Positions 1 through 22,455 of a stretch of 24,000 nucleotides of DNA are shown here, piece after piece (the stretch's first letter is position 1; each line of letters opens with the position of its first letter). The DNA comes from an uncultured Gammaproteobacteria bacterium (GTDB lineage: Bacteria > Pseudomonadota > Gammaproteobacteria > JAURND01). Location: contig CAVQQD010000002.1 in assembly GCA_963714975.1 (NCBI GenBank), positions 238,209-262,208 of the forward strand, written 5' to 3'. The notes beneath the pieces were generated by a model that was not told the DNA's origin, made no database searches, and worked only from the letters and a program-made list of their open reading frames with translations. The position numbers and the translations under genes were made by a program.

Positions 1-720
1 ATACAAAACATTTATTTTTGCGGTGAAAAAGCAAGTACTGATTTAATCTCTACCTTTATCGATCAAACTACGGTTAATCTTACCCATGTATACGGTCCAA
101 CAGAAAATGTCGTATTTTCTACTTACTGCGTTTTAAATAAAGATAATATAACTATTTCTCCTATCGGCAAACATTTAAATGATAAAACTCTTTATATCCT
201 TGATACCCAGCTACATCCTGCACCTATTGGCGCAATTGGCGAGTTATATATCGGTGGCGCTGGAGTCGCACGCGGTTATTTAAATCTTCCTGATTTAACG
301 GCCGAACGCTTTATCACCAATCCCTTTCAAACAGAGGATGAAAAGAAACTCGAGAAAAATGCTCGTCTATACAAGACCGGTGATTTGGTGCGTTATCTCC
401 CTGATGGCAATCTTGAATATATCGGCAGAAATGATTTTCAAGTTAAAATCCGTGGCTTTCGAATTGAGCTGGGTGAAATTGAAAATAAATTACTAGCCTA
501 TCCAGGAATCACACAAGCAGTGGTATTAGCGAGAGAACATGAAGAAACCCAGGGAAAATATTTAGTAGGTTATTATGTTGCGGAAAAATCCTTGGCGCAG
601 GACTGCATCCTTGACTATCTAAGCGGTCAATTACCCGATTATATGCTCCCCAGCAGTTTAGTGTGGTTAGACACATTGCCCTTAACCATTAATGGTAAAT
701 TAGATCGAAATGCATTACCT
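1..720 (+). other. NRPS domain: adenylation domain, C-terminal part (module n, substrate unknown)
   Basis: YGPTE at 91-105, GELYIGGAG ~241-267, GRNDFQVKIRGFRIELGEIE 424-483, NGKLDR 691-708. Only the last specificity positions are visible (Y299, C301, V322, V330, F331 by GrsA numbering), so no substrate call is made. Confidence 0.85.
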
Positions 721-3700
721 GATCCTGAGTTTACGACTCTATCCAATTATGTCGCCCCGCGCAATGATCTCGAAGCTAAAGTCTGTGCCATATATGCTGA
801 AGTTTTGCATGTACCTGTTGCCAATATTGGTATTCGAGATGATTTCTTTCGATTAGGTGGTGACAGTATTGTCAGTATTCAACTCGTCAGCCGTTTACGC
901 CAACGCTTGGGATTAACGCTTAGCGTTAAAGATATTTTTACCTACAAGACCGTCGAAAAACTTTACGATAGGTTGTTGGCAGCACAGGAATTAATCAGCG
1001 GTGAAAGAGCTGATTTAGTGCTGCGTGAAAGCGGTTTACTCTCTGGTGATCTGGGGCTTTTACCGATCCAAGCCTGGTTTTTCAACCACGTGACGAATGG
1101 TTTCTATCCACAACCCGGGCATTGGAATCAAGCCTTTTTAATCAAAACAGAGAAACTTGGCCCCGCATTATTAAAACATAGCTTGGTAAAATTAATCGAG
1201 TATCACGATGCCTTCAGATTAAATTATCGCTTAACCGATGCAGGTGATTACCAACAATACTACAATCCAAGCATTAATGATAAAAACCTAGATTTTGCTT
1301 ATTTGGACATAACACCTTTCACCAATCCTGACAAATACCAACGTATTTTAACCGATTGGCAAAGTCATTTTGCATTATTCAGTGATTCGCCCTTGTATCA
1401 AATAGGATATCTGGAAAATTATCCTGATGGCAGTAGCCGTATTTTTGTCGCGCTCCATCATTTATTAATCGATGCCGTTAGTTGGCGCATCATTACTCAT
1501 GATTTACATGAACTGTATGAAAAATTAAGTGCTGCAGAAATAAATAATCAACTCGATCAAGTCATGCAACAAAGCAGTGAAACTTTACTCGGTAAAAAAG
1601 GCACTAGCTATCGTCAATGGGTAGAACAAGTGCACGCGTATGCGCATCACTCCGATGAGCAAGAATATTGGCTAACGCAATTATCCGATCTTGCCGCCAT
1701 GGAACAGCAATTAACCAATTTAGTCGTAAGTGAGACTACGAGAAACTACGTGCAATGGAGTTTGGATCGAGAAAATACTCGACGATTACTCACCGAAAGC
1801 AATCGTGCTTATCACACTGAAATCAACGATTTATTATTAACGAGTTTTGCTCGGGCATTGGTCGAATTAACCCAACAAGAAATTCATCATATTATTACCT
1901 TAGAAGGCCATGGTCGCGAAGAAATTGCACCACACCTTGATATTACGCGGACGGTAGGTTGGTTTACTACTTTGTACCCCGTTAAATTGGCAATACACCC
2001 AGAAAGTATGGCAAAATCTATTGTGCAGGTGAAAGAACATTTGCGCAAAATTCCACACAAGGGCATTGGTTATGGCGCCTTATTAGGCTATATCAATCAT
2101 CCCTTACCTCGCATCAGTTTTAATTATCTTGGCCAACTTAATGCCGGCATAGAGCAAGCTCATTGGCATATCACCGGTGAACCTTGCGGCATCACCATCG
2201 TTCCGGAAAATCCAGACCCTAATATCATTAATGCCAATGGTATAGTCACTCAAGGTGAACTACGATTTATCATAGCAGCTAAAATCAGTCAGCAAAATTT
2301 AGCACGATTTGCTGAGGCTTTTAAACAACAATTACTCTCACTGATTCAGTATACCGTCGACTTGCCACGAACGTATTTAACTGCGAGTGATATTGACGAT
2401 ATTATCAGTCAAGATTATTTAGATAAAATCCAGGATACGCGTGAAATCAGCCACGTCTATCTCGCCAATAGTTTACAGCAGGGATTTGTTTATCATGCCT
2501 TAAGTCAAGAATTAGATACTGCTTATCGCGTGCAGATCGTATTTCATTACCACAATCCTTTAGAGCCCGAATTGTTACGCATGGCTTGGCAAGGAGCATT
2601 GCACAAATATCCTGCTTTAAGACTACGATTTTCCTGGGATGAAGCCTTAGTGCAAATCATCGATCAGCATCAAGAGTTACATTGGCAATATAGCGATATC
2701 AGTGCACAAACATCAGAGTTACAAGAACAATTTATTCATGACTTAGTCAGCCAAGATCGTCAACATCCGTATCATTTAGATCAAGGGCATTTGTTGCGGA
2801 TTTTCCTAATCAAGCAAGGAGAGACACACTATACCTGTCTTTTCAGCTGCCATCATGCCATTCTTGATGGTTGGAGTAATCCTATCTTGCTGGGTTTTGT
2901 GCATGATTTGTATGAGCAACTGTATGCTAACCGCACTAACAGCACAGCACAAGCACGCATTTTATCCACAATTCAAGAAGAAACCGCCTACCCTTTAAGC
3001 CAGGCTTATTGGCAAAAAACTGATGTAGCTAGTCAAGCGTTTTGGCAACAGGAAATAGCGCGCATTACTGACCATGCGAATTTAAATGGCCTACTTCGCC
3101 CTGAGAAACGAAGCGTGCGTTTAGCAGAATATCGGTTTATTGAACATAAATCAGAGGTAGCTAGCAAAATTCAAGGACCGTTGTATCAAGCCATCAAAGC
3201 ATATTGCTCTGAGCTTGGGGTAACGGTGAATACCGTACTGCAATATGGGTGGCATAAATTGCTGAGTGTGTATGGCAATAGCCCTATTACGGTGGTGGGC
3301 ACCACAGTTTCAGGACGAAATTTACCCATTGATCATATTGAAAAATCAGTGGGTTTATATATTAATACCTTACCGTTAATCCTTGAACATGAGGATGATA
3401 AAACGATTGCCGCTCAAATAACCCTACTTCAAAACAAAATTAATGAGATCAATAGTCATAGTGCGATCAGCTTAGCGAAATTACAACACTCGGATAGCAG
3501 ATTATTTGACAGTTTATTTGTTTTTGAAAACTATCCCGTTCCACAAAAAATTGCAGACCGTGTACTTAAAGTCAGTGGCTTTCGCGGTACCGAGGAGCTG
3601 GATTATCCTTTGGCAATCATCGCCTACGAACAAGCGGAAACTCTCCAGATTAATCTAAAATATGCAAGAGAGTTATTTAGTCAAGCAACCATTACCACTT

Positions 3701-6700
3701 TATTACATAATTTAGAATTCGTGTTATACCAAATCACGGTCAGCAAAATAGCACAACCCAAAAGTCTTAACTATCTTGACTCAGACAATTACCAAAAAAT
3801 TATTTATGAGTGGAACCAAACGGAAAAAGATTACCCTGCTGATAAAACTATTCAGCAATTATTCGAAGCACAAGTCGAGAGAACGCCCGAACATATTGCT
3901 GTAGTCTTTGAAAATACTCAGCTTACCTACCACGAACTCAATGCTAAATCCAACCAACTCGCGCATTATTTACAGCAGACCTATCAGCCACAAGCCGATG
4001 ATTTAATTGCGCTATGCTTGGATCGCAGCGCACAGATGATTATCACTATTTTAGCGGTGTTAAAAGCGGGTGCCGCCTATGTGCCAATTGATCCTGGCTA
4101 TCCAGAGGAACGTATCCAGTATATTTTGCAAGATACCGACACAAAATTAGTGCTGGCTAATGTTAACCATTACGATAAATTAATTCATATAATTGAATGC
4201 GTGAGTAATAACCAATTGCCGATCCATACCGAAGCTATTGATAGTCCGGAGTTTTCCAACAAATTAAACGCGTATCAAGAAACCAATCTCAAGCAACATG
4301 TTCATAGTACTAATTTAGCTTATGTGATTTATACGAGTGGCACTACCGGAAAACCAAAGGGAGTATTACAGCAACATAATAACGTTCATCGACTATTTTC
4401 AGCAACAGAGGAACTATACCATTTTCACAGCAATGATGTATGGACGCTATTTCATTCCTACATTTTCGATTTTAGTGTATGGGAAATTTGGGGCGCTTTA
4501 TTTTATGGTGGCAAACTGTTCATCCCAAGCTACGAACAAACTAGGGATATAAGCTTATTTTATCAACTCTGTGATCAGTATGGCGTAACAGTGTTGAATC
4601 AAACTCCCACCGCCTTTTATCAATTGATCAATGCAGCTAGCGCTAACCCTCATCATCGCTTAGCTAGCCTACGATATGTTATTTTTGGTGGCGAAGCCCT
4701 GAATTTATCACAATTACTGCCTTGGTTTAATGTTTATGACTATGATAAACCCAGGTTAGTAAACATGTACGGCATAACCGAGACTACTGTCCATGTAACT
4801 TATAAACTAATACAAGCAGAAGATCTAGGAAATAGTTCCTATATAGGAGAACGGCTACCTGATCAAAAAATATATATCGTCGATGCTGACCTTAAGCCAA
4901 TACCTATTGGCGCAATTGGCGAGTTATATATCGGTGGCGCTGGAGTCGCACGCGGTTATTTAAATCTTCCTGATTTAACGGCCGAACGCTTTATCACCAA
5001 TCCCTTTCAAACAGAGGATGAAAAGAAACTCGAGAAAAATGCTCGTCTATACAAGACCGGTGATTTGGTGCGTTATCTCCCTGATGGCAATCTTGAATAT
5101 ATCGGCAGAAATGATTTTCAAGTTAAAATCCGTGGCTTTCGAATTGAGCTGGGTGAAATTGAAAATAAATTACTAGCCTATCCAGGAATCACACAAGCAG
5201 TGGTATTAGCGAGAGAACATGCAGAAACCCAGGGAAAATATTTAGTAGGTTATTATGTTGCGGAAAAATCCTTGGCGCAGGACTGCATCCTTGACTATCT
5301 AAGCGGTCAATTACCCGATTATATGCTCCCCAGCAGTTTAGTGTGGTTAGACACATTGCCCTTAACCATTAATGGTAAATTAGATCGAAATGCATTACCT
5401 GATCCTGAGTTTACGACTCTATCCAATTATGTCGCCCCGCGCAATGATCTCGAAGCTAAAGTCTGTGCCATATATGCTGAAGTTTTGCATGTACCTGTTG
5501 CCAATATTGGTATTCGAGATGATTTCTTTCGATTAGGTGGTGACAGTATTGTCAGTATTCAACTCGTCAGCCGTTTACGCCAACGCTTGGGATTAACGCT
5601 TAGCGTTAAAGATATTTTTACCTACAAGACCGTCGAAAAACTTTACGATAGGTTGTTGGCAGCACAGGAATTAATCAGCGGTGAAAGAGCTGATTTAGTG
5701 CTGCGTGAAAGCGGTTTACTCTCTGGTGATCTGGGGCTTTTACCGATCCAAGCCTGGTTTTTCAACCACGTGACGAATGGTTTCTATCCACAACCCGGGC
5801 ATTGGAATCAAGCCTTTTTAATCAAAACAGAGAAACTTGACCCCGCATTATTAAAACATAGCTTGGTAAAATTAATCGAGTATCACGATGCCTTCAGATT
5901 AAATTATCGCTTAACCGATGCAGGTGATTACCAACAATACTACAATCCAAGCATTAATGATAAAAACCTAGATTTTTCTTATTTGGACATGACACCTTTC
6001 ACCAATCCTGACCAATACCAACGTATTTTAACCGATTGGCAAAGTCATTTTGCATTATTCAGTGATTCGCCCTTATATCAAATAGGATATCTGGAAAATT
6101 ATCCTGATGGCAGTAGCCGTATTTTTGTCGCGCTCCACCATTTATTAATCGATGCCGTTAGTTGGCGCATCATTACTCATGATTTACATGAACTGTATGA
6201 AAAATTAAGTGCTGCAGAAAAAAATAATCAACTCGATCAAGTCATGCAACAAAGCAGTGAAACTTTACTCGGTAAAAAAGGCACTAGCTATCGTCAATGG
6301 GTAGAACAAGTGCACGCGTATGCGCATCACTCCGATGAGCAAGAATATTGGCTAACGCAATTATCCGATCTTGCCGCCATGGAACAGCAATTAACCAATT
6401 TAGTCGTAAGTGAGACTACGAGAAACTACGTGCAATGGAGTTTGGATCGAGAAAATACTCGACGATTACTCACCGAAAGCAATCGTGCTTATCACACTGA
6501 AATCAACGATTTATTATTAACGAGTTTTGCTCGGGCATTGGTCGAATTAACCCAACAAGAAATTCATCATATTATTACCTTAGAAGGCCATGGTCGCGAA
6601 GAAATTGCACCACACCTTGATATTACGCGGACGGTAGGTTGGTTTACTACTTTGTACCCCGTTAAATTGGCAATACACCCAGAAAGTATGGCAAAATCTA

Positions 6701-9700
6701 TTGTGCAGGTGAAAGAACATTTGCGCAAAATTCCACACAAGGGCATTGGTTATGGCGCCTTATTAGGCTATATCAATCATCCCTTACCTCGCATCAGTTT
6801 TAATTATCTTGGCCAACTTAATGCCGGCATAGAGCAAGCTCATTGGCATATCACCGGTGAACCTTGCGGCATCACCATCGTTCCGGAAAATCCAGACCCT
6901 AATATCATTAATGCCAATGGTATAGTCACTCAAGGTGAACTACGATTTACCATAGCAGCTAAAATCAGTCAGCAAAATTTAGCACGATTTGCTGAGGCTT
7001 TTAAACAACAATTACTCTCACTGATTCAGTATACCGTCGACTTGCCACGAACGTATTTAACTGCGAGTGATATTGACGATATTATCAGTCAAGATTATTT
7101 AGATAAAATCCAGGATACGCGTGAAATCAGCCACGTCTATCTCGCCAATAGTTTACAGCAGGGATTTATTTATCATGCCTTAAGTCAAGAATTAGATACT
7201 GCTTATCGCGTGCAGATCGTATTTCATTACCACAATCCTTTAGAGCCCGAATTGTTACGCATGGCTTGGCAAGGAGCATTGCACAAATATCCTGCTTTAA
7301 GACTACGATTTTCCTGGGATGAAGCCTTAGTGCAAATCATCGATCAGCATCAAGAGTTACATTGGCAATATAGCGATATCAGTGCACAAACATCAGAGTT
7401 ACAAGAACAATTTATTCATGACTTAGTCAGCCAAGATCGTCAACATCCGTATCATTTAGATCAAGGGCATTTGTTGCGGATTTTCCTAATCAAGCAAGGA
7501 GAGACACACTATACCTGTCTTTTCAGCTGCCATCATGCCATTCTTGATGGTTGGAGTAATCCTATCTTACTGGGTTTTGTGCATGATTTGTATGAGCAAC
7601 TGTATGCTAACCGCACTAACAGCACAGCACAAGCACGCATTTTATCCACAATTCAAGAAGAAACCGCCTACCCTTTAAGCCAGGCTTATTGGCAAAAAAC
7701 TGATGTAGCTAGTCAAGCGTTTTGGCAACAGGAAATAGCGCGCATTACTGACCATGCGAATTTAAATGGCCTACTTCGCCCTGAGAAACGAAGCGTGCGT
7801 TTAGCAGAATATCGGTTTATTGAACATAAATCAGAGGTAGCTAGCAAAATTCAAGGACCGTTGTATCAAGCCATCAAAGCATATTGCTCTGAGCTTGGGG
7901 TGACGGTGAATACCGTACTGCAATATGGGTGGCATAAATTGCTGAGTGTGTATGGCAATAGCCCTATTACGGTGGTGGGCACCACAGTTTCAGGACGAAA
8001 TTTACCCATTGATCATATTGAAAAATCAGTGGGTTTATATATTAATACCTTACCGTTAATCCTTGAACATGAGGATGATAAAACGATTGCCGCTCAAATA
8101 ACCCTACTTCAAAACAAAATTAATGAGATCAATAGTCATAGTGCGATCAGCTTAGCGAAATTACAACACTCGGATAGCAGATTATTTGACAGTTTATTTG
8201 TTTTTGAAAACTATCCCGTTCCACAAAAAATTGCAGACCGTGTACTTAAAGTCAGTGGCTTTCGCGGTACCGAGGAGCTGGATTATCCTTTGGCAATCAT
8301 CGCCTACGAACAAGCGGAAACTCTCCAGATTAATCTAAAATATGCAAGAGAGTTATTTAGTCAAGCAACCATTACCACTTTATTACATAATTTAGAATTC
8401 GTGTTATACCAAATCACGGTCAGCAAAATAGCACAACCCAAAAGTCTTAACTATCTTGACTCAGACAATTACCAAAAAATTATTTATGAGTGGAACCAAA
8501 CGGAAAAAGATTACCCTGCTGATAAAACTATTCAGCAACTATTTGAAGAGCAAGTCGAGAGAACGCCCGAACATATTGCTGTAGTCTTTGAAAATACCCA
8601 ACTCAGCTATCGTGATCTTAATGCCAAAGCCAATCAATTAGCTCACTACCTAAGGCACAAATATCCAATTCAAGGCGATGACTTAATTGCTTTGTGTTTA
8701 GAACGCAATGAACAGATACTCACTAGCATCTTAGCTGTGCTAAAAACTGGGGCTGCCTATGTGCCAATTGATCCAGATTATCCTGACGAAAGAATCAACT
8801 ATATTTTGGCAGATACAGCTACGCATTTGATCTTAACCAATGAAAATTCGCAAATGAAGCTAAGTGCCATTATAAACCATCATTCCTTACAAACACGAGT
8901 AGAGGCTATTGATAGTCCTGAGTTATACAACAAATTAAATGCTTATCAAGCAACAAATCCCACGCCGCCTATTCATAGTACTAATTTAGCTTATGTGATT
9001 TATACCTCAGGTTCTACCGGTCAACCTAAAGGGGTATTGATCAAACATGGAAGTTTGATCAATGCATTGCAGGCGGTAGATGCGATGATTCAAGTTTCCA
9101 GCCATGACCGCTTCTTGGCTTTAACGACATATACATTTGATATTTCTGGTTTGGAATTTTATTTACCTCTGCTTAAAGGAGCTACTTGCGTGATTGCTCC
9201 AGACAAAGCCAGAATAGATATGACTGTTCTTAAACAAATTCTTCACACCAAAGCTATAACTATCATGCAAGCCACCCCAGCTACCTGGTTAATGCTTCGT
9301 CATTCAAACTGGCAAAGCAAGAAACCATTAAAAATACTTTGTGGCGGCGAAACATTAACTATGCAACTCGCTGCCTCCTTGATTGAGAATCATCATCAAA
9401 TATGGAATATGTATGGTCCAACAGAAACTACCATTTGGTCATCCTGTTGCTTATTACAGGCTGGCAAAGTTAATCCTCCACCAATTGGAAAACCACTAGC
9501 AAATACTCAATTTTACGTGCTAGATCCCCTTACAAATCCTGTACCTATTGGAGTTACCGGTGAGTTATACATCGGAGGAGATGGTCTAGCACGAGGTTAT
9601 TTAAATCTTCCTGATTTAACTGCCGAACGTTTTGTCATCAATCCATTTCAAACAGAAAATCAGAAAAAGCACGGGAAAAATGCTCGCCTATACATGACCG

Positions 9701-12700
9701 GTGATTTAGTGCGTTATTTACCTGATGGCAATATTGAATACATTGGGAGAAATGATTTCCAAGTTAAAATCCGCGGCTTTAGAATTGAGTTGGGTGAAAT
9801 TGAAAATAAATTAATAGCCTATCCAGAAATAAAACAAGCGGTAGTGTTAGTTAAGGAACATCAAACAAACAACGAAAAATACCTCGTGGGTTATTATGTG
9901 GCAGACCAGCCACTCGATGAAAATGCTGTATTAGATTATCTGCATCATCAACTTCCTGAATACATGGTGCCTAGTGTCTTGGTTTATTTAACCCAACTAC
10001 CTTTAACCATCAGTGGGAAATTAGACCGTAGCGCATTACCTGATCCAGAATTGAGTAAAATCACTGAATATGTACCTCCTCGCAATGATTTAGAACGAAA
10101 AGTCTGTGAGATCTACGCAGCAGTTTTAGGTTTACCACCTACTTCTGTGGGCATTCGGGATAATTTCTTTCGCTTAGGGGGTAATAGTATTTTAGCTATT
10201 AAGCTTGTCAGCCAATTAAATAAGCAAATTTTTTCTGACCCCTCTTTTCAAGTAGAAAAATTAATTCAAGTCGCTGAAATTTTTCGGCATAAAACTATCT
10301 TAAGTTTATTAGACAGTCTTTTAAGCGAAGACGAAAGCGAGACCATCATTATTCCTAGCCAAGGACCTATCCAAAAAGCAGGTTTATCTTTTGCCCAAGA
10401 ACGTTTATGGTTTATTGAACAGTATGAAGTTGGAAGCAATGCCTATAATATTCCATTGTTGAAAAAAATACCTGCACAAGTCGATGCTCGATTGTTGGCA
10501 CAAGCGTTACTCTCGGTTGTATCCCGCCATGAAGTATTACATAGTTTGATCAAGACTGATAGTCAGGGTAATGGTTATCAAGAAGTCATCGACTTAAATA
10601 GTTCACCATGTAACATTGCTTATCACTCGTTCTCTGATTCTGCCGCACTTAAAAAATATATTGATACCGAAATCAATCATATTTTTAATTTAAATAGCGA
10701 ATATCCCATTAGAATTCAGCTCCTAACCCAACAAGATACTGCAACAAACTATTTGTTGATCGTGGTACATCACATCGCGTTTGATGGTTGGTCAATTGAA
10801 GTATTTATGCGTGATCTGCAAGCGCTTTATCAGCACGAGCCCTTGCCAGAATTAACCATTCAATATAAAGATTTTTCCATTTGGCAAAGGAATTATTTAA
10901 CTGGAGAACGCCTAGCCCATCAATTAAATTATTGGAAAAATAAACTTAGTGATTATGCTGGATTACATCTACCCACCGATAAACCAAGACCTCCTGAAAT
11001 TAGTTACCTAGGCAACGATGTTTATTTTAGTATTGATCCAAAGACTAGCACTCAATTAAGAGAAATTGCTAAAAAGCTAGGCATCAGTTTATACAGTGTA
11101 TTACTGGCCGGATTTAATTTGCTACTAAGAAGCTACAGCAATCAAGATGATATAGTCATAGGCACTCCCATTGCCAACCGCCACCATCAACAACTCGAAG
11201 ATCTTATCGGATTTTTTGTCAATAGTCTGGCTCTGCGCAGCCAAATAAATCCCGAGCACGCATTGAATCATTACCTAGAAGAAGTGGGTCGTGATGTGAT
11301 CGGGGCACAACTGCATCAAGATCTACCCTTTGAAAAATTGGTAGAAGAACTGGAAATTCCCAAGGATCGCAGCCGTCATCCCCTGTTCCAAGTCATGTTT
11401 GGAGTACAAAGTTTTGCAACTACAACAGCTGAATTATTGGAGCCTGCTTCTTTCACACTGAATTATCCTGTAGCGAAGTTCGATTTAAGTGTTTTTCTCG
11501 ATGATAGCTACGCCGAATTAAGGGGAAATTTTAATTATGCGGAGAGTTTATTTACGAAAGAAACCATCAATATTCTCATTGCCATCTATCAACGTATTTT
11601 GTCACAATTAGCATATGAGCCATTGCTACTAATAAAAAACTTAAGTTATCTCGATGCCACGAGTTATCAAAAAATTATTTATGAGTGGAACCAAACGGAA
11701 AAAGATTACCCTGCTGATAAAACTATTCAGCAACTATTTGAAGAGCAAGTGGCACGAACCCCTGAAAATATTGCCGTAGTTTATGAAAATACTCAGCTTA
11801 CCTACCACGAACTCAATAGCAAAGCCAATCAACTCGCGCATTATCTACAACAAACCTATCAGCCACAAGCCGATGATTTAATTGCGCTATGCTTGGATCG
11901 CAGTGAACAGATGATTATCACCATTTTAGCGGTATTAAAAACTGGCGCTGCCTATGTTCCCATCGATCTTGGTTATCCCGAGGAACGTATCCAGTATATT
12001 TTGCAAGATACTGCCACCAAGCTAGTGCTGACTAATGCCAGACATCAAGATAAATTAACTCATATAATCGACGGTGTGGGTAGTTATCAATTACTGATCA
12101 ACATCGAAGCCATTGATAGTCTTGAGTTATACAACAAATTAAATGCTTATCAAGCAACAAATCCCACGCCGCCTATTCATAGTACTAATTTAGCTTATGT
12201 GATTTATACCTCAGGTTCTACCGGTCAACCTAAAGGGGTATTGATCAAACATGGAAGTTTGATCAATGCATTGCAGGCGGTAGATGCGATGATTCAAGTT
12301 TCCAGCCATGACCGCTTCTTGGCTTTAACGACATATACATTTGATATTTCTGGTTTGGAATTTTATTTACCTCTGCTTAAAGGAGCTACTTGCGTGATTG
12401 CTCCAGACAAAGCCAGAATAGATATGACTGTTCTTAAACAAATTCTTCACACCAAAGCTATAACTATCATGCAAGCCACCCCAGCTACCTGGTTAATGCT
12501 TCGTCATTCAAACTGGCGAAGCAAGAAACCATTAAAAATACTTTGTGGCGGCGAAACATTAACTATGCAACTCGCTGCCTCCTTGATTGAGAATCATCAT
12601 CAAATATGGAATATGTATGGTCCAACAGAAACTACCATTTGGTCATCCTGTTGCTTATTACAGGCTGGTAAAGTTAATCCTCCACCAATTGGAAAACCAC

Positions 12701-15700
12701 TAGCAAATACTCAATTTTACGTGCTAGATCCCCTTACAAATCCTGTACCTATTGGAGTTACCGGTGAGTTATACATCGGAGGAGATGGTCTAGCACGAGG
12801 TTATTTAAATCTTCCTGATTTAACTGCCGAACGTTTTGTCATCAATCCATTTCAAACAGAAAATCAGAAAAAGCACGGGAAAAATGCTCGCCTATACATG
12901 ACCGGTGATTTAGTGCGTTATTTACCTGATGGCAATATTGAATACATTGGGAGAAATGATTTCCAAGTTAAAATCCGCGGCTTTAGAATTGAGTTGGGTG
13001 AAATTGAAAATAAATTAATAGCCTATCCAAAAATAAAACAAGCGGTAGTGTTAGTTAAGGAACATCAAACAAACAACGGAAAATACCTCGTGGGTTATTA
13101 TGTGGCAGACCAGCCACTCGATGAAAACGCTGTATTAGATTATCTGCATCATCAACTTCCTGAATACATGGTGCCTAGTGTCTTGGTTTATTTAACCCAA
13201 CTACCTTTAACCATCAGTGGGAAATTAGACCGTAGCGCATTACCTGATCCAGAATTGAGTAAAATCACTGAATATGTACCTCCTCGCAATGATTTAGAAC
13301 GAAAAGTCTGTGAGATCTACGCAGCAGTTTTAGGTTTACCACCTACTTCTGTGGGCATTCGGGATAATTTCTTTCGCTTAGGGGGTAATAGTATTTTAGC
13401 TATTAAGCTCGTCAGCCAATTAAATAAGCAAATTTTTTCTGACCCCTCTTTTCAAGTAGGAAAATTAATTCAAGTCGCTGAAATTTTTCGGCATAAAACT
13501 ATCTTAAGTTTATTAGACAGTCTTTTAAGCGAAGACGAAAGCGAGACCATCATTATTCCTAGCCAAGGACCTATCCAAAAAGCAGGTTTATCTTTTGCCC
13601 AAGAACGTTTATGGTTTATTGAACAGTATGAAGTTGGAAGCAATGCCTATAATATTCCATTGTTGAAAAAAATACCTGCACAAGTCGATGCTCGATTGTT
13701 GGCACAAGCGTTACTCTCGGTTGTATCCCGCCATGAAGTATTACATAGTTTGATCAAGACTGATAGTCAGGGTAATGGTTATCAAGAAGTTATCGACTTA
13801 AATAGTTCACCATTTAACATCGCTTATCACTCGTTCTCTGATTCTGCCGCACTTAAAAAATATATTGATACCGAAATCAATCATATTTTTAATTTAAATA
13901 GCGAATATCCCATTAGAATTCAGCTCCTAACCCAACAAGATACTGCAACAAACTATTTGTTGATCGTGGTACATCACATCGCGTTTGATGGTTGGTCAAT
14001 TGAAGTATTTATGCGTGATCTGCAAGCGCTTTATCAGCACGAGCCCTTGCCAGAATTAACCATTCAATATAAAGATTTTTCCATTTGGCAAAGGAATTAT
14101 TTAACTGGAGAACGCCTAGCCCATCAATTAAATTATTGGAAAAATAAACTTAGTGATTATGCTGGATTACATCTACCCACCGATAAACCAAGACCTCCTG
14201 AAATTAGTTACCTAGGCAACGATGTTTATTTTAGTATTGATCCAAAGACTAGCACTCAATTAAGAGAAATTGCTAAAAAGCTAGGCATCAGTTTATACAG
14301 TGTATTACTGGCCGGATTTAATTTGCTACTAAGAAGCTACAGCAATCAAGATGATATAGTCATAGGCACTCCCATTGCCAACCGCCACCATCAACAACTC
14401 GAAGATCTTATCGGATTTTTTGTCAATAGTCTGGCTCTGCGCAGCCAAATAAATCCCGAGCACGCATTGAATCATTACCTAGAAGAAATGGGTCGTGATG
14501 TGATCGAGGCACAACTGCATCAAGATTTACCCTTTGAAAAATTGGTAGAAGAACTGGAAATTCCCAAGGATCGCAGCCGTCATCCCCTGTTCCAAGTCAT
14601 GTTTGGAGTACAAAGTTTTGCAACTACAACAGCTGAATTATTGGAGCCTGCTTCTTTCACACTGAATTATCCTGTAGCGAAGTTCGATTTAAGTGTTTTT
14701 CTCGATGATAGCTACGCCGAATTAAGGGGAAAATTTAATTATGCGGAGAGTTTATTTACGAAAGAAACCATCAATATTCTCATTGCCACCTATCAACGTA
14801 TTTTGTCACAATTGGCATATGAGCCATTGCTACTAATAAAAAACTTAAGTTATCTCGATGCCACGAGTTATCAAAAAATTATTTATGAGTGGAACCAAAC
14901 GGAAAAAGATTACCCTGCTGATAAAACTATTCAGCAACTATTTGAAGAGCAAGTGGCACGAACCCCTGAAAATATTGCCGTAGTTTATGAAAATACTCAG
15001 CTTACCTACCACGAACTCAATAGCAAAGCCAACCAACTCGCGCATTATCTACAACAAACCTATCAGCCACAAGCCGATGATTTAATTGCGCTATGCTTGG
15101 ATCGCAGTGAACAGATGATCATTACCATTTTAGCTGTGTTAAAAGCTGGTGCTGCCTACGTACCCATCGATCCTGGTTATCCTGAAGAACGCATCCATTA
15201 TATTTTGCAAGATACTGCCACCAAGCTAGTGCTGACTAATGCCAGACATCAAGATAAATTAACTCATATAATCGACGGTGGGGGTGGTTATCAATTGCCG
15301 ATCCATATCGAAGCCATCGACAGCCCTAATTTACAAAACCAATTAAATGCTTATCAAGAGACTAATCCCATACTACATATCCATAGTAATAACTTAGCTT
15401 ATGTCATTTACACCAGTGGCACTACTGGGAATCCAAAAGGAGTGATGATTGAACATAAGAACGTTGTGAACTTAGCTGTAATGCAAGCCAAGGAATTTAG
15501 TTTATCGACACAATCGATAGATAACGCAAAAATTCTAAATTGCTTAGAATATGCAAATTATGTGTTTGATGCGCATGTTTGGGAATTATTCACAGTGATA
15601 AGTAATGGACATATCCTACATATAGCAAGTGATAGAATACGTCCAGACATAGAGCTATTATCAGAATATATTAATCTTCATAAAATTTACCTAGCAACCA

Positions 15701-15786
15701 TACCACCCGCATTATTATCGGTAGATACTTTATTGCCACTGAGCATTTTAGTAGTTGCCGGAGAAAAAACAACAAAGATATATTGA
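1..15786 (+). CDS. Non-ribosomal peptide synthetase, 5'-partial and multimodular (A-T-E, C-A-T-E, C-A-T, C-A-T, C-A'). The frame ends at TGA 15784-15786 inside the last adenylation domain.
   Basis: Frame 1 has no stop from nt 1 to 15783. I translated 1-384 by hand (IQNIYFCGEK...HVYGPTEN...GELYIGGAGVARGYLN), so the gene continues upstream of the window. Repeated canonical NRPS motifs are present: A3 YTSG(T/S)TGxPKG, A5 YGxTE, A8 GRNDFQVKIRGFRIELGEIE, A10 NGKLDR, PCP GG(D/N)S, C HHxxxDG, E HHxxxDxxSW and EGHGRE. Confidence 0.96.
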   Translation: MQNIYFCGEKASTDLISTFIDQTTVNLTHVYGPTENVVFSTYCVLNKDNITISPIGKHLNDKTLYILDTQLHPAPIGAIGELYIGGAGVARGYLNLPDLTAERFITNPFQTEDEKKLEKNARLYKTGDLVRYLPDGNLEYIGRNDFQVKIRGFRIELGEIENKLLAYPGITQAVVLAREHEETQGKYLVGYYVAEKSLAQDCILDYLSGQLPDYMLPSSLVWLDTLPLTINGKLDRNALPDPEFTTLSNYVAPRNDLEAKVCAIYAEVLHVPVANIGIRDDFFRLGGDSIVSIQLVSRLRQRLGLTLSVKDIFTYKTVEKLYDRLLAAQELISGERADLVLRESGLLSGDLGLLPIQAWFFNHVTNGFYPQPGHWNQAFLIKTEKLGPALLKHSLVKLIEYHDAFRLNYRLTDAGDYQQYYNPSINDKNLDFAYLDITPFTNPDKYQRILTDWQSHFALFSDSPLYQIGYLENYPDGSSRIFVALHHLLIDAVSWRIITHDLHELYEKLSAAEINNQLDQVMQQSSETLLGKKGTSYRQWVEQVHAYAHHSDEQEYWLTQLSDLAAMEQQLTNLVVSETTRNYVQWSLDRENTRRLLTESNRAYHTEINDLLLTSFARALVELTQQEIHHIITLEGHGREEIAPHLDITRTVGWFTTLYPVKLAIHPESMAKSIVQVKEHLRKIPHKGIGYGALLGYINHPLPRISFNYLGQLNAGIEQAHWHITGEPCGITIVPENPDPNIINANGIVTQGELRFIIAAKISQQNLARFAEAFKQQLLSLIQYTVDLPRTYLTASDIDDIISQDYLDKIQDTREISHVYLANSLQQGFVYHALSQELDTAYRVQIVFHYHNPLEPELLRMAWQGALHKYPALRLRFSWDEALVQIIDQHQELHWQYSDISAQTSELQEQFIHDLVSQDRQHPYHLDQGHLLRIFLIKQGETHYTCLFSCHHAILDGWSNPILLGFVHDLYEQLYANRTNSTAQARILSTIQEETAYPLSQAYWQKTDVASQAFWQQEIARITDHANLNGLLRPEKRSVRLAEYRFIEHKSEVASKIQGPLYQAIKAYCSELGVTVNTVLQYGWHKLLSVYGNSPITVVGTTVSGRNLPIDHIEKSVGLYINTLPLILEHEDDKTIAAQITLLQNKINEINSHSAISLAKLQHSDSRLFDSLFVFENYPVPQKIADRVLKVSGFRGTEELDYPLAIIAYEQAETLQINLKYARELFSQATITTLLHNLEFVLYQITVSKIAQPKSLNYLDSDNYQKIIYEWNQTEKDYPADKTIQQLFEAQVERTPEHIAVVFENTQLTYHELNAKSNQLAHYLQQTYQPQADDLIALCLDRSAQMIITILAVLKAGAAYVPIDPGYPEERIQYILQDTDTKLVLANVNHYDKLIHIIECVSNNQLPIHTEAIDSPEFSNKLNAYQETNLKQHVHSTNLAYVIYTSGTTGKPKGVLQQHNNVHRLFSATEELYHFHSNDVWTLFHSYIFDFSVWEIWGALFYGGKLFIPSYEQTRDISLFYQLCDQYGVTVLNQTPTAFYQLINAASANPHHRLASLRYVIFGGEALNLSQLLPWFNVYDYDKPRLVNMYGITETTVHVTYKLIQAEDLGNSSYIGERLPDQKIYIVDADLKPIPIGAIGELYIGGAGVARGYLNLPDLTAERFITNPFQTEDEKKLEKNARLYKTGDLVRYLPDGNLEYIGRNDFQVKIRGFRIELGEIENKLLAYPGITQAVVLAREHAETQGKYLVGYYVAEKSLAQDCILDYLSGQLPDYMLPSSLVWLDTLPLTINGKLDRNALPDPEFTTLSNYVAPRNDLEAKVCAIYAEVLHVPVANIGIRDDFFRLGGDSIVSIQLVSRLRQRLGLTLSVKDIFTYKTVEKLYDRLLAAQELISGERADLVLRESGLLSGDLGLLPIQAWFFNHVTNGFYPQPGHWNQAFLIKTEKLDPALLKHSLVKLIEYHDAFRLNYRLTDAGDYQQYYNPSINDKNLDFSYLDMTPFTNPDQYQRILTDWQSHFALFSDSPLYQIGYLENYPDGSSRIFVALHHLLIDAVSWRIITHDLHELYEKLSAAEKNNQLDQVMQQSSETLLGKKGTSYRQWVEQVHAYAHHSDEQEYWLTQLSDLAAMEQQLTNLVVSETTRNYVQWSLDRENTRRLLTESNRAYHTEINDLLLTSFARALVELTQQEIHHIITLEGHGREEIAPHLDITRTVGWFTTLYPVKLAIHPESMAKSIVQVKEHLRKIPHKGIGYGALLGYINHPLPRISFNYLGQLNAGIEQAHWHITGEPCGITIVPENPDPNIINANGIVTQGELRFTIAAKISQQNLARFAEAFKQQLLSLIQYTVDLPRTYLTASDIDDIISQDYLDKIQDTREISHVYLANSLQQGFIYHALSQELDTAYRVQIVFHYHNPLEPELLRMAWQGALHKYPALRLRFSWDEALVQIIDQHQELHWQYSDISAQTSELQEQFIHDLVSQDRQHPYHLDQGHLLRIFLIKQGETHYTCLFSCHHAILDGWSNPILLGFVHDLYEQLYANRTNSTAQARILSTIQEETAYPLSQAYWQKTDVASQAFWQQEIARITDHANLNGLLRPEKRSVRLAEYRFIEHKSEVASKIQGPLYQAIKAYCSELGVTVNTVLQYGWHKLLSVYGNSPITVVGTTVSGRNLPIDHIEKSVGLYINTLPLILEHEDDKTIAAQITLLQNKINEINSHSAISLAKLQHSDSRLFDSLFVFENYPVPQKIADRVLKVSGFRGTEELDYPLAIIAYEQAETLQINLKYARELFSQATITTLLHNLEFVLYQITVSKIAQPKSLNYLDSDNYQKIIYEWNQTEKDYPADKTIQQLFEEQVERTPEHIAVVFENTQLSYRDLNAKANQLAHYLRHKYPIQGDDLIALCLERNEQILTSILAVLKTGAAYVPIDPDYPDERINYILADTATHLILTNENSQMKLSAIINHHSLQTRVEAIDSPELYNKLNAYQATNPTPPIHSTNLAYVIYTSGSTGQPKGVLIKHGSLINALQAVDAMIQVSSHDRFLALTTYTFDISGLEFYLPLLKGATCVIAPDKARIDMTVLKQILHTKAITIMQATPATWLMLRHSNWQSKKPLKILCGGETLTMQLAASLIENHHQIWNMYGPTETTIWSSCCLLQAGKVNPPPIGKPLANTQFYVLDPLTNPVPIGVTGELYIGGDGLARGYLNLPDLTAERFVINPFQTENQKKHGKNARLYMTGDLVRYLPDGNIEYIGRNDFQVKIRGFRIELGEIENKLIAYPEIKQAVVLVKEHQTNNEKYLVGYYVADQPLDENAVLDYLHHQLPEYMVPSVLVYLTQLPLTISGKLDRSALPDPELSKITEYVPPRNDLERKVCEIYAAVLGLPPTSVGIRDNFFRLGGNSILAIKLVSQLNKQIFSDPSFQVEKLIQVAEIFRHKTILSLLDSLLSEDESETIIIPSQGPIQKAGLSFAQERLWFIEQYEVGSNAYNIPLLKKIPAQVDARLLAQALLSVVSRHEVLHSLIKTDSQGNGYQEVIDLNSSPCNIAYHSFSDSAALKKYIDTEINHIFNLNSEYPIRIQLLTQQDTATNYLLIVVHHIAFDGWSIEVFMRDLQALYQHEPLPELTIQYKDFSIWQRNYLTGERLAHQLNYWKNKLSDYAGLHLPTDKPRPPEISYLGNDVYFSIDPKTSTQLREIAKKLGISLYSVLLAGFNLLLRSYSNQDDIVIGTPIANRHHQQLEDLIGFFVNSLALRSQINPEHALNHYLEEVGRDVIGAQLHQDLPFEKLVEELEIPKDRSRHPLFQVMFGVQSFATTTAELLEPASFTLNYPVAKFDLSVFLDDSYAELRGNFNYAESLFTKETINILIAIYQRILSQLAYEPLLLIKNLSYLDATSYQKIIYEWNQTEKDYPADKTIQQLFEEQVARTPENIAVVYENTQLTYHELNSKANQLAHYLQQTYQPQADDLIALCLDRSEQMIITILAVLKTGAAYVPIDLGYPEERIQYILQDTATKLVLTNARHQDKLTHIIDGVGSYQLLINIEAIDSLELYNKLNAYQATNPTPPIHSTNLAYVIYTSGSTGQPKGVLIKHGSLINALQAVDAMIQVSSHDRFLALTTYTFDISGLEFYLPLLKGATCVIAPDKARIDMTVLKQILHTKAITIMQATPATWLMLRHSNWRSKKPLKILCGGETLTMQLAASLIENHHQIWNMYGPTETTIWSSCCLLQAGKVNPPPIGKPLANTQFYVLDPLTNPVPIGVTGELYIGGDGLARGYLNLPDLTAERFVINPFQTENQKKHGKNARLYMTGDLVRYLPDGNIEYIGRNDFQVKIRGFRIELGEIENKLIAYPKIKQAVVLVKEHQTNNGKYLVGYYVADQPLDENAVLDYLHHQLPEYMVPSVLVYLTQLPLTISGKLDRSALPDPELSKITEYVPPRNDLERKVCEIYAAVLGLPPTSVGIRDNFFRLGGNSILAIKLVSQLNKQIFSDPSFQVGKLIQVAEIFRHKTILSLLDSLLSEDESETIIIPSQGPIQKAGLSFAQERLWFIEQYEVGSNAYNIPLLKKIPAQVDARLLAQALLSVVSRHEVLHSLIKTDSQGNGYQEVIDLNSSPFNIAYHSFSDSAALKKYIDTEINHIFNLNSEYPIRIQLLTQQDTATNYLLIVVHHIAFDGWSIEVFMRDLQALYQHEPLPELTIQYKDFSIWQRNYLTGERLAHQLNYWKNKLSDYAGLHLPTDKPRPPEISYLGNDVYFSIDPKTSTQLREIAKKLGISLYSVLLAGFNLLLRSYSNQDDIVIGTPIANRHHQQLEDLIGFFVNSLALRSQINPEHALNHYLEEMGRDVIEAQLHQDLPFEKLVEELEIPKDRSRHPLFQVMFGVQSFATTTAELLEPASFTLNYPVAKFDLSVFLDDSYAELRGKFNYAESLFTKETINILIATYQRILSQLAYEPLLLIKNLSYLDATSYQKIIYEWNQTEKDYPADKTIQQLFEEQVARTPENIAVVYENTQLTYHELNSKANQLAHYLQQTYQPQADDLIALCLDRSEQMIITILAVLKAGAAYVPIDPGYPEERIHYILQDTATKLVLTNARHQDKLTHIIDGGGGYQLPIHIEAIDSPNLQNQLNAYQETNPILHIHSNNLAYVIYTSGTTGNPKGVMIEHKNVVNLAVMQAKEFSLSTQSIDNAKILNCLEYANYVFDAHVWELFTVISNGHILHIASDRIRPDIELLSEYINLHKIYLATIPPALLSVDTLLPLSILVVAGEKTTKIY
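748..975 (+). other. NRPS domain: PCP/T (GGDS type, as usually found before E domains)
   Basis: DDFFRLGGDSIVSIQL; phosphopantetheine Ser codon at 865-867. Confidence 0.85.
1020..2360 (+). other. NRPS domain: epimerization (E)
   Basis: LLPIQAWFF (E1), HHLLIDAVSW (HH at 1456-1461), EGHGRE 1903-1920, TVGWFTTLYPV, FNYLGQ. Confidence 0.88.
2446..3735 (+). other. NRPS domain: condensation, DCL-type (accepts a D-configured donor)
   Basis: N-terminal LANSLQQGFVYHAL (DCL-like C1) and CHHAILDGWS (HH at 2851-2856). It follows an E domain. Confidence 0.82.
3844..5400 (+). other. NRPS domain: adenylation, predicted Thr-specific
   Basis: A3 YTSGTTGKPKG 4330-4362; FDFSVWE 4465-4485. The hand-extracted 10-residue code is D F W N I G M V H K, identical to the canonical Thr code. 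Confidence 0.85.
5428..5655 (+). other. NRPS domain: PCP/T (GGDS type)
   Basis: Copy of 748-975 at +4680 nt; Ser codon at 5545-5547. Confidence 0.85.
5700..7040 (+). other. NRPS domain: epimerization (E), second copy
   Basis: Near-identical copy of 1020-2360; HH at 6136-6141. Confidence 0.88.
7126..8415 (+). other. NRPS domain: condensation, DCL-type, second copy
   Basis: Near-identical copy of 2446-3735; HHAILDG begins at 7531. Confidence 0.82.
8524..10045 (+). other. NRPS domain: adenylation, predicted Gly-specific
   Basis: FDISGLE 9136-9156, ILCGGE, WNMYGPTETTIWSS. The hand-extracted code is D I L Q L G M I W K, a 9/10 match to the canonical Gly code DILQLGLIWK. No E domain follows, which fits an achiral residue. 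Confidence 0.82.
10066..10330 (+). other. NRPS domain: PCP/T (GGNS type)
   Basis: DNFFRLGGNSILAIKL; Ser codon at 10186-10188. Confidence 0.85.
10378..11625 (+). other. NRPS domain: condensation, LCL-type
   Basis: LSFAQERLWFIEQ (LCL C1) and VVHHIAFDGWS (HH at 10768-10773). Confidence 0.85.
11728..13249 (+). other. NRPS domain: adenylation, predicted Gly-specific (second)
   Basis: The core from ~12112 onward is a near-identical copy of 8908 onward. FDISGLE at 12340-12360; same code DILQLGMIWK. Confidence 0.82.
13270..13534 (+). other. NRPS domain: PCP/T (GGNS type)
   Basis: Ser codon at 13390-13392. Confidence 0.85.
13582..14829 (+). other. NRPS domain: condensation, LCL-type (second)
   Basis: Copy of 10378-11625; HH at 13972-13977. 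Confidence 0.85.
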
Positions 15787-16455
15787 AGTTTTACCGAAAT
15801 AATCAAATAGCTGTAGTCAATGGTTATGGACCTACAGAATCGACAGTCTGCGCCACATTAAATCACTATCATGAAAATGATTTAAGTACCGACATTGGGA
15901 AACCAATCGCTAACATTACAATCTATATTTTAGATATCTATTTAAACCCAATACCGATTGGCGCGATAGGTGAACTGTACATCGGAGGAGCCGGGCTAGC
16001 CCGCGGCTATTTAAATCTTCCTGATTTAACTGCCGAACGTTTTATCCCCAATCTATTTCAAACAGAAGACGAAAAGAAATTTGGAAAAAATACACGCCTC
16101 TATAAGACCGGTGATTTAGTGCGTTATCTTCCTGATGGCAATCTCGAATATATCGGCAGAAATGATTTTCAAGTTAAAATCCGTGGTTTTAGAATTGAGC
16201 TGGGTGAAATTGAAAATAAATTAATAGCCTACCCAGAAATAAAACAAGCGGTAGTGTTAGTTAAGGAACATCAAACAAACAACGAAAAATACCTTGCGGG
16301 CTACTATGTTGCAGACCAACCACTCGATGAAAACGCTATGTTAGATTATCTACATCATCAACTTCCTGAATACATGGTGCCTAGTGTCTTGGTTTATTTA
16401 ACCCAACTACCTTTAACCATCAATGGGAAATTAGATCGTAGCGCATTACCTGATC
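14932..16455 (+). other. NRPS domain: adenylation, Phe-like (aromatic) code, interrupted by the frameshift at ~15770
   Basis: A3 YTSGTTGNPKG ~15409-15441; FDAHVWE 15565-15585. The code assembled across the frameshift is D A W T V A G V C K. It is closest to Phe codes: 7/10 identical to GrsA DAWTIAAICK, and the three differences are conservative. Confidence 0.7.
15763..15786 (+). other. Frameshift site that splits the last A domain, beside the run a6 at 15764-15769. Frame 1 stops at 15784-15786 and frame 3 carries on.
   Basis: Frame 1 reads VVAGEKTTKIY*. Frame 3 reads ..KNNKDILKFYRNNQIAVVNGYGPTE and is open from 15684. Either a 1-nt gain between 15772 and 15780 (giving ..GEKTTKDILKFY..) or a -1 slip on the A-run (giving ..GEKNNKDILKFY..) restores a normal-length A4-A5 spacer. 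Compare FCGEKASTDLISTFIDQTTVNLTHVYGPTE at nt 19-105. Confidence 0.85.
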
Positions 16456-17474
16456 CAGAATTGAGTAAAATCACTGAATATGTACCTCCTCGCAATGATT
16501 TAGAACGAAAAGTCTGTGATATTTACGCAGCAGTTTTAGGTTTACCACCTACTTCTGTGGGCATTCGGGATAATTTCTTTCGCTTAGGGGGTAATAGTAT
16601 TCTTGCAGTCAAATTAATCGCACTATTAAATAAAAAGTGTAATACTTATTTAAAAGTTGCAGAATTGTTTAGTTCTAAATCTATTCTAGATTTAATAAAA
16701 CTAATAACAACAATGCGTATAAAATATAAGACCATTGTAAAGCTTAATAATGCTAAAAATAAACCATTAATGTTAATGATCCATCCAGGTAATGGTGGGT
16801 GTGAAGTTTACGCAGATTTAGCAAAACGCTCGTCCAATTTTTATGCTTGTTATGGCATAGATAATTATAACTTATATCATAGAGATAAATTTCAAACGCT
16901 GCACAGTCTATCTAATTACTACTTAAGTCTTATAGAAAAACAATTTGACTTAAACAACAAACAAACTGAAATCATATTATTTGGGTGGTCATTAGGGGGT
17001 TTAATTAGTCTTGAAATAGCCAATATCCTAGAGCAACGTAGTCATACTCGCATAAGAGTTTATTTATTAGATACTATTATCGACGACGAACAATTGACAC
17101 AACTAAAACAATTAAATGAAAAAATAATTAAAAAACAAATTTATGAATATTTTAAGAAAAATTATAATAAAAATTATGCACGAAAAATCATTGATAACTT
17201 TAGTATCGAAGAAAAAATAGGTCATGAAAAGATTTCTGATTTTTTGCGTTATACAAAAATAACTTTATTCAAAGCCATGCAGAAAGATACCACAATTGAA
17301 GCAACTGCTTCAATTGGTGAATATATCGAAAATTTACCCTACAACAATGTAGACAAAATTGTACGCGATCTTTCTCAACTGACGGTTGTTAATGTCGAGC
17401 AGGCTAATCACTCAAACATTCTGAAATTTCAGGAAATATTGTTACAGCACTTAGTTAGTCCAAAAATTCTCTAA
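15783..17474 (+). CDS. NRPS terminal fragment in frame 3: the remainder of the last A domain (A5-A10), a PCP and a thioesterase. It is a continuation of the upstream ORF across a frameshift, not an independent gene.
   Basis: The translation begins mid-domain (..[13 protein letters not shown] = A5) and continues with [45 protein letters not shown] and NGKLDR. It then shows PCP [8 protein letters not shown] (Ser codon 16596-16598) and the TE motif GWSLGG (16983-17000). The TTG 'start' at 15783 has no RBS logic. Confidence 0.9.
   Translation: [563 protein letters not shown]
16480..16700 (+). other. NRPS domain: terminal PCP/T
   Basis: [16 protein letters not shown]; Ser codon at 16596-16598. 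Confidence 0.8.
16740..17471 (+). other. NRPS domain: type I thioesterase (chain release)
   Basis: [16 protein letters not shown] (GxSxG) at 16983-17000, and a C-terminal position in the synthetase. The middle of the domain is very Lys/Asn/Ile-rich. Confidence 0.8.
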
Positions 17475-17526
17475 TTCCTTGAGGAAGTTTGATTTGGGTC
17501 TTAGCCTTATAACGCATCTCATATAC

Positions 17527-17850
17527 CTATCCGATGCACATAAATCGGTCAGCAATTCTCGCTGAAACCCTATTCCCCGACGGGTCCTGCCGCGGCACCC
17601 CACCGTGCTCGTAGCATCATATCCCTTCTCCCACAATGCTTTTTTGTGGGAGAAAAGGTGGCCGCCAGGCCGAATGAGGGTGTTTGAAATGGCTATAAGA
17701 AGGGATATGATGCTACTGCGCGCGATGGGGTCCCCGCCTCCACGTCACCCGCCGGTGTAATGACGGAGCAGGAGAATTGTTGCTTTTTTTTGATCTCATT
17801 GATCCGTGATAAGGCTTCAGTGGGAATTGCTGACCGAGTGCATCGGATAG
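17527..17850. repeat. GC-rich foldback element with nested inverted repeats (MITE- or REPIN-like), non-coding
   Basis: Outer inverted repeat: 17527-17539 with 17838-17850 (13/13) and 17545-17558 with 17824-17837 (14/14), with a 5-nt bulge at 17540-17544. Inner inverted repeat: gtagcatcatatcccttct 17611-17629 with 17698-17716 (19/19), extending imperfectly to ~17594 and ~17733. Central hairpin: ttctcccaca 17626-17635 with tgtgggagaa 17645-17654 (10 bp, 9-nt loop). Confidence 0.75.
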
Positions 17851-17977
17851 CTCCCACAAGGGGAGAAGGAAAATCTACCCACTCGATTCTACATAGAACC
17901 AAAATTATTTTATTGAAAATTGATTTTTGCATGATACAGTGGCCAGTAATATTTAAGGTTTTTAAAAGGAGATAGGA

Positions 17978-18715: not shown

Positions 18716-18740
18716 TATGAAGTGGTTCTGGCCTGTGGGG

Positions 18741-18784: not shown

Positions 18785-18788
18785 ATGG

Positions 18789-20733: not shown

Positions 20734-20739
20734 GAATAA

Positions 20740-22420: not shown

Positions 22421-22455
22421 TAGATTAAGTAGCTTTTTTAAAAAGAGGAGTTTTT

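Follow-up and report, generated by a model that had tools for sequence, protein, structure and literature searches.

Natural swaps of the core or a subdomain of the adenylation (A) domain are found in non-ribosomal peptide synthetases (NRPSs), e.g., in the hormaomycin, microcystin, and anabaenopeptin synthetases. At the level of whole modules, concerted evolution following module duplication is described as a main mode by which NRPSs and polyketide synthases (PKSs) evolve, and it is taken to an extreme in the syringopeptin NRPS and the mycolactone PKS (Medema et al. 2014, PMC4256081). Here, we describe an NRPS gene located in a 24,000-nt stretch of DNA (contig CAVQQD010000002.1, positions 238,209 to 262,208; this whole stretch is referred to as the window, and all positions below are counted within it), which harbors two pairs of kilobase-scale internal repeats, each more than 99% identical. 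The repeats are very probably real parts of one multimodular gene, made by recombination among its own modules, i.e., by duplication and repeated gene conversion.

The boundaries at which NRPS modules exchange parts have been described for the intracellular symbiont Candidatus Endobryopsis kahalalidifaciens, where the NRPSs display a variable A3-A6 specificity core and conserved linkers that are recombination hotspots (PMC11428043). Recombination occurs at the CA-A3 and A6-T1 linkers on either side of this core, while the chirality unit is composed of the thiolation (T) domain, with or without an epimerization (E) domain, plus the condensation (C) domain, up to a conserved C-A interdomain motif; this unit is found in D and L subtypes (PMC11428043).

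The NRPS reading frame of the window spans positions 1-15786 of the forward strand, on which all parts of the gene discussed below reside. In translation, frame 0 is open from base 1, so that the start of the gene lies outside the window, to its left; the first stop is found at 15784, where the frame ends with TGA (15784-15786) within the last A domain, of which it encodes the N-terminal half. A second reading frame (15783-17474) encodes the rest of this A domain (motifs A5-A10), a T domain, and a thioesterase (TE) domain. Mapping of Pfam matches and motifs gave the order (C-terminal part of A)-T-E-C(DCL), A(Thr)-T-E-C(DCL), A(Gly)-T-C(LCL), A(Gly)-T-C(LCL), A(Phe-like)-T-TE, where DCL denotes a C domain specific for a D-configured donor. 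The families Condensation, AMP-binding, AMP-binding_C, and PP-binding are each matched several times, and the motif series A3-A5-A6-A7-A8-A10, T, C3 recurs five times. This collinear, repeated arrangement of C, A, and T domains is that of a type I modular NRPS, and it ends in a release domain, recognized by the Pfam Thioesterase match and a GWSLG motif within 15783-17474. Both repeat pairs lie within the frame that is open from base 1 to 15784, i.e., they share one gene, as had been proposed in an earlier note on this DNA.

The first repeat pair (R1) is composed of positions 222-3858 and 4902-8538, which in a base-by-base comparison differ at 12 of 3637 nt, with no insertions or deletions (indels), corresponding to 99.67% identity at a spacing of 4680 nt (1560 codons). 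Self-BLASTN recovered the pair as 222-4367 and 4902-9038 at 96.3%, a value that includes an extension of lower identity. Copy a runs from 16 nt before motif A6 of module 1 through the A subdomain (A-sub), T, E, and the DCL C domain to the end of a 66-nt tract at the C-A junction, and copy b comprises the A-sub, T, E, DCL C domain, and C-A junction of module 2. The copies flank a unique stretch (3859-4901), which extends from A1 to just before A6 of module 2 and includes the specificity core with the code DFWNIGMVHK. Its Thr core, from A3 to A6 (alignment columns 660-1199), is 27-57% identical to the other modules, and its A1-A3 part is ~85-90% similar to modules 4 and 5. The count of 12 differences without indels agrees exactly with the earlier note, and the layout that it claimed, in which A-sub, T, E, and the DCL C domain flank a unique Thr A-core, is supported.

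The R1 mismatches are not evenly spread, as a 245-nt segment (1297-1541) holds six of the 12 (p ~0.004 in a simulation, with no correction for having tried several cluster sizes), suggesting patchy conversion. The cluster is located at the start of the E domain, around HHxxxD, and four of its six mismatches change an amino acid. It may be a patch that was left unconverted or the result of an exchange with an unseen E domain upstream.

The second pair (R2) is composed of positions 8908-11880 and 12112-15084, which differ at 18 of 2973 nt in the base-by-base comparison, again without indels (99.39% identity); self-BLASTN yielded 8902-12210 and 12106-15414 at 98.2%, ungapped. Copy a begins in module 3, 96 nt upstream of A3, and continues via the Gly A-core, A-sub, T, the LCL C domain, and the linker into the A1 region of module 4, where it ends 58 nt before A2. 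Copy b extends from the Gly A-core of module 4 through the LCL C domain to the A1 region of module 5. The claimed 18 differences were reproduced by direct comparison, and the proposed head-to-tail unit (A-core, A-sub, T, LCL C domain, linker, A N-terminus) was also borne out, being module-sized with a 3204-nt period. The description of R2 as an exact 3204-bp tandem is correct for the spacing, which is exactly 3204 nt (1068 codons), but not for the sequence: identity is 99.4% over 2973 nt and only 91.8% over the other 231 nt of the period, which cover the A2 region of module 4 (11881-12111) and are matched by a tail in module 5 (15085-15315). An older layer of the same homogenization is found in module 5, where A-sub and the start of T (15969-16601) are 91% identical to both R2 copies (9559-10191 and 12763-13395). 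In self-BLASTN, modules 2, 4, and 5 also resemble one another at 80-85% in the N-terminal region of A.

Comparison of mismatches at synonymous sites separates these segments into two age classes. The synonymous divergence (dS) is 0.005 in R1 and 0.013 over the 2973 nt of the R2 block, as compared to 0.27 in the 231-nt R2 tail, which is thus ~20-fold more diverged than the block. A single unequal crossover leaves a near-identical block equal in length to the period. In R2, the block is shorter than the period (2973 vs 3204 nt) and the divergence is not uniform along the period, and because the tail and the block differ in dS to this extent, R2 is poorly explained by one recent tandem duplication. 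We therefore regard as unlikely a scenario in which each repeat arose by one very recent duplication, with no later conversion, such that R2 is a plain tandem of a Gly module and R1 is a duplication followed by replacement of the A-core. This scenario is in line with the very low divergence, with the spacings, which are exact module lengths, and with the absence of indels. In addition to the 231 nt that are missing from the R2 block and the age of the tail, it is contradicted by the 91% identity of module 5 A-sub and T to the Gly modules and by features of the module junctions described below, and at least one further exchange is required under any model. The earlier note offered recent duplication or ongoing gene conversion, which is the right class of process but too simple as a mechanism.

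All 30 differences in the two pairs are substitutions, composed of 24 transitions and a transversion-class remainder of six. Where module 5 can be aligned as an outgroup, derived bases are present in both copies, and the mismatches look like real mutations. Eighteen of the differences are non-synonymous and 12 synonymous; the ratio of the two rates (omega) is 0.54 in R1, 0.34 in R2, and 0.15 in the older tail. These numbers also bear on the idea that the identity is maintained by strong purifying selection on protein function rather than by recent exchange of DNA. The paired modules do share a job, i.e., activation of Gly in one pair and epimerization followed by D-specific condensation in the other, but the synonymous sites are equally conserved (dS 0.005-0.013), and the frequency of amino-acid changes, together with the omega values of 0.34-0.54, is the opposite of what such selection predicts; this explanation has next to no probability. 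Identity at synonymous sites over kilobases cannot be the product of chance or of constraint at the protein level, and the near-identical synonymous sites show that the identity originates from recent common descent of the DNA.

The junctions between modules suggest where the exchanges took place. The 66-nt tract with which R1 ends is identical at all four C-A junctions (3793-3858, 8473-8538, 11668-11733, and 14872-14937) and encodes QKIIYEWNQTEKDYPADKTIQQ with the motif WNxTE; the right end of R1 coincides exactly with the 3' end of this tract. The presence of the tract at four junctions, including those of modules outside the repeat pairs, is not accounted for by one duplication per repeat. 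The remaining breakpoints are located 16 nt before A6, 58 nt before A2, and 96 nt before A3, such that every repeat breakpoint is found in or beside motifs that are conserved in all modules. Substrate-specific A-cores and T-(E)-C blocks behave like cassettes. The region from A6 to T is 78-96% identical across all five modules over the first 240 aligned columns. Two 23-nt tracts are identical in all five modules, the first located in modules 1-5 at 277, 4957, 9598, 12802, and 16008, and the second at 470, 5150, 9791, 12995, and 16201.

Between the C-A junction and A3, the nearest relative of a given segment changes several times, such that this region forms a fine mosaic. Module 3 is the same as module 2 as far as 8538, then carries the variant of modules 4 and 5 for 17 nt (4 mismatches to module 2, in 3859-3875), equals module 2 again for 42 nt (no mismatch in 3876-3917), and is unique thereafter. 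Module 4 equals module 5 over the linker and the A1 region and is ~92% like it in the stretch around A2; from 12112 onward, it follows module 3 instead. This alternation of nearest relatives on a scale of 17-42 nt beside R1 also argues against a single duplication. The gene is thus composed of blocks that differ in nearest paralogue and in age and are identical at synonymous sites, which is the pattern of concerted evolution, and the two ages and the mosaic layers together require several exchanges rather than one event.

The repeats and where they end, the types of the domains, and the existence of two age classes are directly observed; a mechanism of recombination and an order of events are inferred. 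Homologous recombination between modules of the same gene would have duplicated modules through unequal crossing-over and repeatedly homogenized them by gene conversion, i.e., by concerted evolution. The exchanges would occur where all modules share short conserved segments, namely the C-A junction (WNxTE) tract and the stretches before A2, before A3, and before A6. Chirality blocks (T-E-DCL or T-LCL) and substrate blocks (A-cores) would thereby be copied or swapped as cassettes, and the outcome would be two T-E-DCL cassettes, 99.7% identical, around a different A-core (Thr), and a pair of Gly modules with 99.4% identity.

Repeats of this kind may also be generated when a genome is assembled, by false duplication of a module, by joining of strain variants in tandem, or by collapse of copies. 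Kilobase repeats with an identity above 99% are difficult to assemble, the source appears to be an uncultured genome whose relatives are metagenome contigs, and frameshifted genes nearby cast doubt on the quality of the local consensus. A false duplicate or a joined strain variant would, however, be near-identical over the whole period. Module 4 instead has its own 231-nt A2 region, which is 8% off that of module 5 and is unlike that of module 3, and the R1 copies flank different A-cores. Furthermore, the differences are exclusively substitutions with a transition bias of 24:6, no indels are seen, and the frame is preserved across every junction for 15.7 kb. An origin in assembly is therefore highly unlikely, although it is conceivable that extra copies of the repeats were collapsed.

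Recombination among the modules of one gene remains the explanation that fits these data best, and several points weigh against it. Duplication and gene conversion lead to the same end state, such that the two ages demonstrate more than one event but not their order. The test for clustering in R1 is based on 12 sites. A donor of the diverged 231-nt tail was not found within the window; it may be located in unseen upstream modules.

To determine how unusual such repeats are, the same self-comparison was applied to a control set of 154 unrelated NRPS loci (2.5 Mb), which the searches had brought up. Nineteen of these loci contain internal direct repeats that reach 500 bp or more with an identity of 90% or higher, and three (~2%) carry repeats of at least 2.3 kb at 99.8-100%, i.e., 3045 bp at 100% in L072 (600-3644 and 5327-8371), 2503 bp at 99.96% in L012 (1-2503 and 4444-6946), and 2372 bp at 99.8% in L091 (8108-10479 and 11357-13728). 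The ends of these repeats, where they lie inside the fetched locus, are located at A or T motifs. The hosts are a Nitrosomonas metagenome-assembled genome (MAG), a Moorena MAG, and a metagenome contig. Near-identical module repeats are thus uncommon but not exceptional, and in view of these three loci and of the published cases of concerted evolution, the rarity that the earlier note attributed to them was overstated.

As in the systems treated in PMC4256081, modules of one and the same synthetase have here become nearly identical via internal recombination, domains with the same job are homogenized, and the repeats mirror the repeated residues of the predicted product (Gly-Gly and D-D). In contrast to the extreme cases described there, only two pairs are found among the five visible modules, and the closest relatives have ~50% protein identity. 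The window closely resembles what is described for Ca. Endobryopsis, i.e., a variable A3-A6 specificity core, chirality units of D and L subtypes, and conserved points of exchange, the latter represented here by the 66-nt C-A tract at four sites and by the A6-to-T region. There, the exchange takes place mostly among many separate pathways of one genome, whereas it is confined here to one gene, and the block ends are near, but do not equal, the published stripe ends (CA-A3 linker to A6-T1 linker). As in A-core swaps, the R1 modules are identical on either side of the stretch that bears the specificity code; unlike in these swaps, the unique stretch is ~1 kb long (from A1 to just before A6), which exceeds a minimal subdomain. 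Gene conversion among the modules of one assembly line is also shared with GRINS, but GRINS are described in PKS genes, and the intense nucleotide skew that characterizes them was not seen in a simple test with 150-nt windows (mean GC skew -0.05, standard deviation 0.12, with extremes of -0.43 and +0.33 away from the repeat ends). From this comparison, it becomes apparent that the locus is a clear, fresh example of a known process.

The assignment of the C-like domains is supported by comparison with profiles and solved structures, which uphold the earlier reading of E, DCL, and LCL domains. In modules 1 and 2, the first C-like domain is an E domain (TIGR01720, 85.8 bits vs a cut-off of 74.2), and the best solved-structure matches of the domain at 1021-2430 are the E domains of PvdL, TycB, GrsA, and TycA. 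The C domain that follows (2431-3810) best matches McyB, PvdL, bacitracin synthase 3, SrfA-C, and TycB, where the matched domains are C domains that follow E or take D-donors. The arrangement of an E domain and then a D-donor-specific C domain is thus found in these modules. The best solved-structure matches of the Gly-module C domain (10351-11700) are the LCL-type Txo1, Txo2, and TycC (2jgp), and D-donor-accepting C domains score far lower.

The specificity codes of the A domains were read by hand via motif anchors in the translation and assigned by the established Stachelhaus code. They are DFWNIGMVHK (Thr) in module 2, DILQLGMIWK (Gly) in modules 3 and 4, and DAWTVAGVCK in module 5, which is Phe-like at low confidence. 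The predicted tail of the peptide would accordingly read D-Xaa, D-Thr, Gly, Gly, and a Phe-like residue, and would be released by the TE. The domain reading and the D-Xaa, D-Thr, Gly, Gly tail thus support the D-D and Gly-Gly product of the earlier note; what that proposal presumes is a working enzyme, and the terminal A domain is frameshifted. When the source's own 563-residue protein is left aside, no match exceeds 53% identity, either among genomes scanned with the Thr A-core or among metagenomes scanned with the LCL C domain; at the protein level, the best identities are 52% for the TE frame and 48% for the E-C pair.

The frameshift, which the earlier note did not mention, is a -1 shift at a run of six A (15764-15769), which splits the last A domain between A4 and A5 and is shortly followed by the stop at 15784-15786. 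Addition of one A to this run restores ...VVAGEKNNKDILKFYRNNQIAVVNGYGPTE..., with a spacing from GGE/AGE to YG of 20 residues, as in the Gly modules. The homologues are collinear across the break, i.e., frame +1 is matched to about 15723-15780 and frame +3 from about 15723-15819. The second frame continues with NGYGPTE and displays Pfam matches to AMP-binding (profile positions 307-384), AMP-binding_C, PP-binding, and Thioesterase; its 563-residue product is 100% identical to a database protein encoded on a contig of 1,240,461 bp. All other domains of the synthetase are intact. A functional A domain split into two polypeptides, with frames overlapping at TTGA, was considered and set aside because the break is located between A4 and A5, inside the core fold. 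The frameshift is either a real and very recent inactivation or a miscalled homopolymer, and in the former case the assembly line may be inactive. A uniform sequencing error behind all frameshifts of the window is unlikely, as at least eight frame breaks are found in the region 20.7-24 kb, but just one in the 17.4-kb NRPS with its 33 homopolymer runs (six or more A/T, or five or more G/C); a locally poor consensus sequence is nevertheless conceivable.

Downstream of the NRPS, the window harbors an SDR gene, a Dps gene, a histidine acid phosphatase gene, an element of the IS1380 family, and icd, which encodes isocitrate dehydrogenase. The IS1380-family element (20702-22431) is bounded by 26-nt inverted repeats (20702-20727 and 22406-22431), the left of which extends into the 3' end of the phosphatase gene; the transposase of the element is broken into at least three frames (20775-21008, 21105-22067, and 21941-22342). 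The icd gene (22813-24000, reverse strand) runs off the right edge of the window and contains six ±1 frameshifts, mostly at short runs (C3, T6, C3, and G4); it is either a fresh pseudogene or the product of a locally poor consensus. Once its frames are stitched, icd is otherwise well conserved: the product shares 85-86% identity, along 99% of the sequence, with isocitrate dehydrogenases from uncultured Gammaproteobacteria, and 80% with the enzyme from a Legionellales MAG. Judged from icd alone, the source is probably an uncultured gammaproteobacterium with a small genome.

In two relatives (contigs of 1.06 and 1.48 Mb), the NRPS is absent beside icd, and the NRPS region looks lineage-specific. 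On the 1.06-Mb contig, the Clp ATPase gene adjacent to icd (6007-8475 of the fetched locus L155) is found in about seven small frames, a fragmentation that resembles the one seen here and looks like either pseudogene decay or indel errors of long reads. The G+C content is 48.7% in the SDR region (18001-19000), 34-42% in the NRPS (1-17474), and 45% at the icd end. This contrast, together with the adjoining IS element, hints that the NRPS region differs in origin from its neighbors.

The spacer between the NRPS and the SDR gene (17520-17870) forms a single long hairpin with nested arms (-176 kcal/mol, z = -11.8 vs shuffled sequences) with inverted repeats that include a perfect 19-nt pair (17611-17629 and 17698-17716) and a 29-nt pair (17545-17573 and 17809-17837); possible identities are a miniature inverted-repeat element and a structured RNA of unknown type. 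Within the window, no Rfam match at the gathering score and no tRNA were found, and a permissive RNA scan of 17400-18000 gave matches at chance level only.

The ends of the repeats represent natural boundaries for cut-and-paste exchange in an NRPS for which no close relatives were found, and these boundaries are tolerated at least as far as the sequence is concerned. A Thr A-core is placed between two otherwise identical scaffolds, and an entire Gly module has been copied from just before A3 to just before A2; such boundaries guide attempts at NRPS engineering. Kilobase repeats of more than 99% identity in assembly-line genes are to be expected rather than viewed as anomalies, and assemblies from short reads probably under-count them. 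The current view of how NRPS genes evolve is unchanged by this finding. As a tentative and rather doubtful extension, the assembly line may have been caught in the midst of remodeling in an uncultured gammaproteobacterium with a small genome, probably host-associated, where the 66-nt tracts would enable swaps of cassettes, the number of modules would be polymorphic, and the frameshift in the A run would be either a first step of decay or a slippage-prone on/off point. If this were true, the locus would be the second natural system, after Ca. Endobryopsis, to reveal workable points of recombination in NRPSs.

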